Source: Escherichia coli (GTDB lineage: Bacteria > Pseudomonadota > Gammaproteobacteria > Enterobacterales > Enterobacteriaceae). From it: 64,000 nucleotides of DNA. The notes beneath the pieces are model-generated. The model was given only the letters and a program-made list of their open reading frames with translations, made no database searches and was not told the DNA's origin. The DNA is taken from NCBI RefSeq assembly GCF_003790525.1, contig NZ_CP033635.1; one strand, given 5' to 3'. Each line of letters begins with the position of its first letter. Within the stretch, counting starts at the first letter, position 1. This document shows, one piece after another, positions 44,629 through 44,786 of this stretch. The position numbers and the translations under genes are program-made.

Positions 44629-44667
44629 GCGATAAAAAAGAGGGCCTTAAAGATATCATGAAGGCCC
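44629..44667 (-). terminator. Intrinsic terminator candidate between the Druantia-like pair and the DISARM-like operon
   Basis: Stem gggcctt / aaggccc (12-nt loop) followed on the minus strand by CUCUUUUUUAUC. Confidence 0.45.
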
Positions 44668-44786
44668 CCGGCAAAGTGACAAAATGGGAGGGAATGCGCA
44701 TAATTTGCGCATGATTTTCAAACAAAAATTATTAAAAAGTGAGCTGGGTCAACTCCCCTGGAAGATATCCTCAGGGGAGCAATTAT

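Follow-up and report, generated by a model that had tools for sequence, protein, structure and literature searches.

The druE-armA junction and its genomic setting

The window analysed here (the whole stretch of 64,000 nucleotides from Escherichia coli contig NZ_CP033635.1) carries the Zorya II - Druantia III - ARMADA II island of E. coli, OI-172. Two of its genes, druE of the Druantia type III system and armA, both lie, like all the genes around them, on the minus strand and are separated by a gap of 223 bp, all of whose features are read on that same coding strand (Table 1). The armABCD genes are z5899-z5902 of O-island 172, named ARMADA type II in PMC12458937 and bioRxiv 10.1101/2025.09.22.677730; in the same two papers, ARMADA II is reported to occur together with Druantia III and Zorya II and to synergise with them, and Druantia III and ARMADA II are reported to be synergistic and to travel together. 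Using PADLOC, the products of the operon were matched to a DrmD/BrxHII-like helicase, a DrmMI/type IIG-like methyltransferase, a DruE-like helicase and a GajB-like UvrD helicase. The gene identities are also backed by the RefSeq annotation of the identical locus in E. coli SMS-3-5; the queried stretch around the gap, positions 44500-44850, shows 100% identity to that strain.

The gap corresponds to the druE-armA intergenic region of the published island and is included whole in the published ARMADA clone. While the kind of system is already known, the anatomy of the gap at the level of its elements is new detail; a word search of the text of PMC12458937 and bioRxiv 10.1101/2025.09.22.677730 found no description of a promoter, hairpins or leader in the gap, and the words "intergenic" and "terminator" are absent from both.

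Past Zorya II, the island runs on at 54615-64000 (L001 30173-40351) with more defence-type genes, annotated by RefSeq in SMS-3-5 as an HNH endonuclease, a phosphorothioated-DNA-binding restriction endonuclease and a JetD-domain protein. Plasmids of E. coli and Klebsiella -- IncY, IncFIB and others -- also carry the complete Zorya II - Druantia III - ARMADA II array, gap included, in 17 records (L003 and L004, for example).

Table 1. Genes and sequence elements at the druE-armA junction, in window coordinates
Feature	Position	Strand	Basis
armABCD operon, ARMADA type II	28328-44563	minus	names from PMC12458937 and bioRxiv 10.1101/2025.09.22.677730
armA, DrmD/BrxHII-like SNF2 helicase, 952 aa, first gene of ARMADA type II	41705-44563	minus	PADLOC
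armA start codon (ATG)	44563-44561	minus	
druE-armA gap, 223 bp	44564-44786		
A-rich stretch AGACAGAAAAACCG	44577-44564	minus	
Rest of the putative armA leader	44564-44630	minus	RNAalifold and alignments
Closing stem of the leader, GCAGUG/CACUGC	44630-44625 / 44590-44585	minus	
CCCTCTTTTTTATCGCAGTGTGC, read as the 5' end of the armA leader	44622-44644	minus	alignments
U-run inside CCCTCTTTTTTATCGCAGTGTGC	44634-44639	minus	
UUUUUUAU, abutting the 3' side of hairpin 2	44639-44632	minus	
Hairpin 2, 9-bp stem GGGGGCCUU/AAGGCCCUC, 12-nt loop	44640-44669	minus	fold
Arms of hairpin 2	44669-44661 / 44648-44640	minus	
Extended -10 element TGATATCTT, proposed armABCD promoter	44650-44658	minus	conservation
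AGATATC copies, in the two hairpin loops	44651-44657 / 44763-44769		
Inverted repeat ATGCGCA-AAUUA-UGCGCAU (both TGCGCAT copies)	44694-44712	minus	fold and alignment
TGCGCAT copies	44695-44701 / 44706-44712		
TTGACC, directly past hairpin 1	44747-44752	minus	alignments and promoter weight-matrix scan
Hairpin 1, GC-rich stem-loop CUCCCCUG-AGGAUAUCUUC-CAGGGGAG	44753-44779	minus	fold and covariation
Arms of hairpin 1, CTCCCCTG/CAGGGGAG	44779-44772 / 44760-44753	minus	
druE stop codon (TAA)	44787-44789	minus	ORF list
druE, Druantia type III helicase-nuclease, 2107 aa	44787-51110	minus	PADLOC DruE3 model, 2180 bits
DruH, Druantia type III	51101-54460		PADLOC

Distribution of the gap and mobility of the regulatory block

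Of 5426 complete E. coli genomes, 534 contain the gap, as do 17 plasmids, and the identity is almost always 97% or higher; the E. coli genomes held no further copies outside the druE-armA locus. Scanning one genome per species at the protein level turned up 80 loci with an armA homologue, and a DNA pattern consisting of the leader core and the first armA codons, from which the extended -10 element discussed below was left out, gave 44 metagenome loci. The combined sources yielded 44 distinct upstream sequences from Escherichia, Siccibacter, Citrobacter, Serratia, Yersinia and Aeromonas-like genomes and from metagenomes. They fall into type A (E. coli), type B (Siccibacter, Citrobacter, Mangrovibacter and E. 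wuhouensis), type C (Serratia, Yersinia and Enterobacter) and an Aeromonad type. Two alignments are referred to below: A3, with 16 distinct variants, true sequences only, and A4, with 22 distinct sequences.

In most loci the regulatory block sits downstream of druE, beginning just past the upstream stop codon, and with druE upstream the gap measures 223 nt +/- 2 even where the C-terminal identity of DruE is down to 61-68%. In Citrobacter, Mangrovibacter, E. wuhouensis, E. coli 1218KP and several metagenome contigs, the upstream gene is an unrelated one of 743 aa, and the homologous block, hairpin 1 included, begins right past its stop codon; in L096, L099, L102 and L105 the block is preceded by still other upstream DNA. 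Because the same block recurs behind different upstream genes, the gap travels with armA, and it is, on this comparison, a regulatory block belonging to the arm operon.

Several of these loci have features of their own. The gap length is constant in L005, L006, L009, L010, L013, L091 and others, though much of the sequence differs. The 743-aa gene is accompanied by one of 1569 aa, the pair replacing druHE upstream of the arm block (L002 12237-19174, minus strand) and also lying upstream of armA in L007, L008, L016, L094, L106 and L118; neither protein has a PADLOC or NCBIfam match, nor has the 743-aa protein one in Pfam, and the pair, as yet uncharacterised, is a candidate defence partner of ARMADA II. 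The arm block of E. coli 1218KP (L002 11782-12000) is a relic, with IS remnants replacing armA right at the start codon and with mutations at otherwise invariant positions (the TG of the extended -10 element and GCAGT), as expected since armA has been lost. An IS1-family end lies just upstream of the putative arm promoter core in L099 (3845-4200). The Vibrio and Enterovibrio loci (L015 and L017, about 3846-4000) have druE upstream of armA, a shorter gap of ~155 nt, another -10 candidate (TAATAT or TACTAT), and a leader in the form of a long 5' stem-loop, in which the differences between the two species in one arm are compensated in the other. One contig, L123 (1-725), was dropped as evidence; it is probably a metagenome chimera in which a low-GC flavodoxin-like gene has been joined to an E. 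coli-type gap at a T-run.

The putative armA promoter

An extended -10 element, TGATATCTT (TG, one base, TATCTT), is proposed as the armABCD promoter from its conservation. The pattern TGnTAnnnT stands at a fixed place in 42 of the 44 distinct upstream sequences, the exceptions being one truncated contig and the 1218KP relic locus, where armA has been destroyed by an IS element; the only sequence with a mutated TG is this relic, which has no armA. The element reads TGATATCTT in type A, TGTTATCTT in type B, TGATACTCT or TGATACCCT in type C and TGGTACTCT in the Aeromonad type, so that TG, TA and the last T are invariant and the variation is limited to the three least critical positions of the hexamer. 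This is the pattern to be expected of extended -10 sigma-70 promoters such as galP1, which hold TG, TA and the last T constant and leave the middle positions free. The arm element resembles that class in its TG-n-TAnnnT sequence, with TG at -15/-14, T at -12, A at -11 and T at -7, in its conservation pattern, in having no recognisable -35 and in its position before the first gene of an operon. L099 keeps the element despite the IS1 end ~13 nt upstream.

The start of armABCD is predicted at ~44643-44647, inside the 3' arm of hairpin 2. Counting against the extended -10 element are the lack of a recognisable -35 and a modest weight-matrix score of 6.5, the higher scores of TTGACC-15-TAATTT and TTGTCA-16-CATGAT in the E. 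coli sequence, and a predicted start that lands on C residues. It also differs from the galP1 type, insofar as a predicted start allows the comparison, in that its conservation reaches the first 25 transcribed bases; the conserved stretch, from about -15 to +25, is more than a plain promoter needs, and an operator or leader RNA function may be conserved there as well, with a protein or RNA partner for these first 25 bases being possible. A plus-strand candidate, GTGACA-17-CATAAT, was rejected, its -10 not being conserved in relatives. The available part of the EDL933 Cappable-seq supplement text has no entry matching the locus tags or the gap sequence.

Primer FN1701 (3' part ATAATTGCTCCCCTGGGGATATC) begins the published ARMADA insert at the first base past the druE stop (PMC12458937, Table S4), and the clone, described as being "under its native promoters", protected BL21-AI (PMC12458937). 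Only the 223-nt gap thus stood upstream of armA in an active clone, which places a promoter within the gap though it does not say which one. With the T7 and SP6 promoters presumably eliminated from pBeloBAC11 by the choice of backbone primers, and with lacZ-alpha presumably running in the opposite direction, no vector promoter should enter the insert.

The probable armA leader

CCCTCTTTTTTATCGCAGTGTGC, read as the 5' end of the armA leader, is the best conserved stretch of the whole gap and is unique within the window. It includes the U-run, which is conserved with or without a preceding hairpin, and it is conserved as nucleotides even where the reading frame differs. The sequence-only reading had described the U-run and the loop before it as parts of a second stem-loop; they are present as described, but their conserved parts are the extended -10 element, which that reading had not considered, and the start of the armA leader. 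A 19-codon ORF, MISLRPSFLSQCAAPHFSG (44600-44659, minus strand), was tried and rejected as a gene. It has the same length in the E. coli and Siccibacter types, and in the Serratia type a 1-nt insertion shifts its frame; because the frame shifts while the nucleotides stay, the region is conserved at the nucleotide level. Its first codon, moreover, precedes the predicted transcription start, and the ORF is probably no gene.

The rest of the leader consists of a variable interior enclosed by the closing stem and followed by the A-rich stretch. RNAalifold found only the 6-bp closing stem to be common to the lineages, one of its pairs being changed on both sides, and folding of the E. coli leader does not exceed that of its shuffles (z = -0.15). 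The A-rich AGACAGAAAAACCG, directly before the armA ATG, is invariant in all the enterobacterial lineages; a Shine-Dalgarno sequence is lacking in front of armA. Vibrio-type loci have a comparable A-rich stretch, GAGCAGAGAACATC.

Hairpin 1

Hairpin 1 begins 7 nt past the druE stop and folds at -18.3 kcal/mol (z = -4.46; none of 200 shuffles is as stable); fold prediction gives this hairpin for 25 of 26 variants, with energies between -16 and -28 kcal/mol. Within the 16 variants of A3, 93% of the cells are paired, versus 51-69% with the partners slid, and two-sided changes are found at 4 pairs (U-A to C-G, G-C to A-U and C-G to G-C). Covariation scores 0.412 versus 0.223 in shuffles, 0 of 500 of which reach 0.412, and structural conservation of the stem-loop that had been noticed after the helicase stop is thereby supported. 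The one-sided changes are all C-to-U, giving U·G, a pair that is tolerated only on the sense-strand RNA, which argues that the hairpin acts there. The covariation draws on few independent lineages, about three sequence types, and for this reason the evidence that hairpin 1 is conserved as a structure is moderate. Its GATATC loop is limited to type A and is changed to GATAAC in one E. coli-type contig.

Though hairpin 1 offers a stable GC-rich stem-loop just past a stop codon, there is no U-rich tract directly 3' of the stem, which is followed by UUGACCCAGCUCAC (in the Serratia type by UUGACGAAGCGC); a U5 run starts 14 nt past the hairpin in some lineages only. Conserved yet without a U-run, it is no canonical member of the intrinsic terminators of Enterobacteria. 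Its position and fold point to a 3'-end, insulating or stabilising RNA element at the upstream edge of the arm block. In the TTGACC directly past it, TTGAC is retained in the E. coli, Siccibacter-type and Serratia-type lineages, along with a downstream GCnCAC; this could be the -35 of a weak upstream promoter, for which only some lineages have a matching -10.

Hairpin 2 as a putative terminator

Hairpin 2 folds at -15.1 kcal/mol (z = -2.8; 4 of 200 shuffles are as stable). Like the intrinsic terminators of Enterobacteria, it has a GC-rich 9-bp stem (6 of 9 bp G-C, -15 kcal/mol) with a U-rich tract, UUUUUUAU, directly 3' of it, on the coding strand and downstream of druE; unlike most of them, it has a loop of 12 nt (typically 3-8 nt), is found in the E. 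coli lineage only and overlaps the putative promoter of the next operon. The terminator scan missed it because the scan allows only loops of 3-8 nt. In the E. coli lineage, hairpin 2 with its U-run is, by its predicted fold, of intrinsic-terminator shape, and druHE read-through would terminate there.

The stem is restricted to the E. coli lineage and one mosaic relative, L090, folding at -15.1 kcal/mol in the window and the O157 type and at -15.8 in L090. In the Siccibacter, E. wuhouensis, Serratia and Aeromonad types, the equivalent region gives 0 to -3.5 kcal/mol. A plasmid-type variant with G-to-A at 44666 and an A·C mismatch, which occurs on plasmids and in about 48 genomes, reaches only -8.5 kcal/mol, and given this weakening hairpin 2 appears to be under no strong constraint. 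In A4 (22 sequences), 58% of its cells are paired, with no covariation above shuffles. Of the terminator that had been suggested for the gap, the shape of hairpin 2 and its U-run stands in the E. coli lineage, but the stem is absent from the Siccibacter/Citrobacter, Serratia/Yersinia and Aeromonas types.

The TGCGCAT repeat and the shared AGATATC

The two TGCGCAT copies form an inverted repeat, ATGCGCA-N5-TGCGCAT, which as RNA folds at -9.2 kcal/mol (z = -3.6). Its TGCGCA helix has 81% of cells paired in A4 (22 sequences), and neither here nor in hairpin 2 is there covariation above shuffles, 119 of 500 of which reach the observed pairing. Perfect copies of the repeat are confined to the E. 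coli lineage; the Siccibacter type has a degenerate form (ATGCGTG...TGCGCAT) and the Serratia type has none. The repeat may work as an RNA stem-loop or as a palindrome bound by a protein; considered as an operator, it lacks sequence conservation across lineages, and no cognate regulator gene lies in the locus.

AGATATC occurs 16 times across the 64-kb window, and ~0.06 copies are expected per 223-bp gap; by our own estimate, the post hoc P for two copies is ~0.002. The copy in hairpin 2 is the reverse complement of the core of the extended -10 element. The gap as a whole folds better than its own shuffles (z = -3.73), and neither the hairpins nor the leader motif recur elsewhere in the window.

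The features listed by the sequence-only reading -- the 223-bp gap, both stem-loops, the U-run, the two TGCGCAT copies and the AGATATC loops -- are thus all present and are here more than chance. The folding and covariation that it put forward as a check favour hairpin 1, which covaries, and not hairpin 2 or the TGCGCAT helix, neither of which does so above shuffles. As conserved signals, the shared AGATATC loop motif and the TGCGCAT repeat find no support, being unconserved outside the E. coli lineage.

Interpretation of the junction

That the region carries transcription signals for the junction of two operons holds good. We consider it moderately probable that the gap is a junction of two co-directional operons, with hairpin 1 as an insulator or stabiliser, an extended -10 arm promoter and, in E. 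coli only, a terminator for druE read-through. From its sequence anatomy, its conservation pattern and the sufficiency of the gap as native upstream DNA for an active clone, all of which are observed, we infer the transcription start, the termination at hairpin 2 and the role of hairpin 1. Hairpin 1, directly past the stop of the upstream gene, would insulate or stabilise the 3' end of the sense transcript. The armABCD genes would be transcribed from the extended -10 sigma-70 promoter TGATATCTT, starting near 44645, with a leader of ~80 nt that runs from the conserved U-rich stretch through the one closing stem to the A-rich end without a Shine-Dalgarno sequence. In the E. coli lineage only, the promoter spacer would have evolved complementarity to the first transcribed bases, and the -10 element would now lie in a hairpin loop, closed by a stem of 9 bp and with the U6 run of the leader behind it. 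Read-through transcripts from druE, holding both arms of hairpin 2, would terminate there, while those from the arm promoter, beginning inside the 3' arm, would form no hairpin 2 and would continue into armA.

On another account, the promoter, the leader and hairpin 1 alone matter; the stem of hairpin 2, the pair of TGCGCAT copies and the AGATATC common to both loops would be neutral, and druHE and armABCD would be partly co-transcribed in all lineages. The absence of these features from most related lineages with the same gene order and 223-nt gap is consistent with this, as are the lack of covariation in hairpin 2 and TGCGCAT and the weakening of hairpin 2 in a variant that is widespread in E. 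coli and on plasmids. Against it, a GC-rich stem of 9 bp abutting U6 is a strong terminator signature that is unlikely to be silent if transcribed from upstream, and two AGATATC copies and a perfect 7-N5-7 palindrome in 223 bp are each improbable by chance; we regard this account as rather unlikely. It is very improbable that ATGCGCA-N5-TGCGCAT and two GATATC-centred inverted repeats are DNA operators, at which a dimeric transcription factor would bind to control armABCD and perhaps also the end of druHE. In its geometry the 7-N5-7 repeat does fit a helix-turn-helix operator, the predicted start lying ~55-60 bp further downstream, L090 has changed both half-sites together (TGCGCA to TGCGTA), and GATATCTT is common to both hairpin apexes. 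Speaking against the regulator-binding site once suggested for the region are the unconserved sequence of the TGCGCAT repeat (only degenerate half-sites in the Siccibacter type, none in the Serratia type) and the absence of a regulator gene from the locus, either in or next to both operons. The pairing of hairpin 1, moreover, is kept in a G·U-compatible way while its sequence changes, which argues for RNA structure and not for sequence-specific protein binding, and its GATATC is the one that is mutated to GATAAC in an E. coli-type contig.

The other alternative is a small RNA or attenuator confined to the E. coli lineage, an ~87-nt RNA (about 44718-44632, minus strand) with the layout of an Hfq-type sRNA: an AUGCGCA/UGCGCAU stem-loop, a single-stranded UCCCUCCC and hairpin 2 with its U-run. 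It would be transcribed from TTGACC as -35, a 15-nt spacer and TAATTT (44726-44731), starting at ~44717-44719, and read-through past hairpin 2, then acting as a leader attenuator, would give the armA mRNA. Among the promoter candidates in the E. coli gap, TTGACC-15-TAATTT does have the highest weight-matrix score (8.7), and the predicted fold, in three parts, has an energy of -24.3 kcal/mol. The Rfam family suhB/mmgR (RF00519), an alphaproteobacterial Hfq-dependent sRNA, matches 44717-44627 (minus strand) end to end (model 1-77) at 23.4 bits, with E = 0.006 for a 241-nt search, aligning the 5' hairpin, the CCUCCC motif and the terminator with its U-tail in the same order and at a similar length. 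This score falls short of the gathering score of 41, however, and much of it comes from the generic terminator; the gap is from the wrong phylum for this family, and the match is gone in the Siccibacter-type and Serratia-type gaps; the likeness is one of layout only. It is also the only match to known RNA families (Rfam) in the gap. The 15-nt spacer is poor, the -10 is unconserved in the B2 and Serratia types, and the CCUCCC motif, stem-loop and hairpin 2 are all unconserved. Nor does a target stand out among the translation start regions of the window, where 185 of 200 shuffled seeds do as well; in duplex energy against all of these regions, the CCUCCC linker is no better than shuffled linkers. 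The small structured RNA of the sequence-only reading survives only as this lineage-specific alternative, which is quite unlikely. The narrower proposal that the E. coli gap encodes a discrete ~87-nt sRNA, either transcribed from a weak promoter of its own or processed from the druHE 3' UTR, with the TGCGCA stem-loop, CCUCCC as an anti-Shine-Dalgarno seed and hairpin 2 as terminator, is very unlikely; were it true, an sRNA placed between two defence systems that synergise could link the expression of the two or act on mRNAs of the host or of phages.

Read as a junction of two operons, the gap is an ordinary one, made up of known kinds of elements, and only their arrangement and the island detail are new. 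The map shows the likeliest position of the arm promoter and a regulatory block that is reused behind different upstream partners; it reveals no new mechanism, and is of use in planning expression studies, minimal ARMADA constructs and clean deletions. A terminator-shaped hairpin that would keep druHE apart from armABCD is present in E. coli strains but not in related genera, and for the coupling or insulation of Druantia III and ARMADA II expression the junction now has a concrete, testable map.
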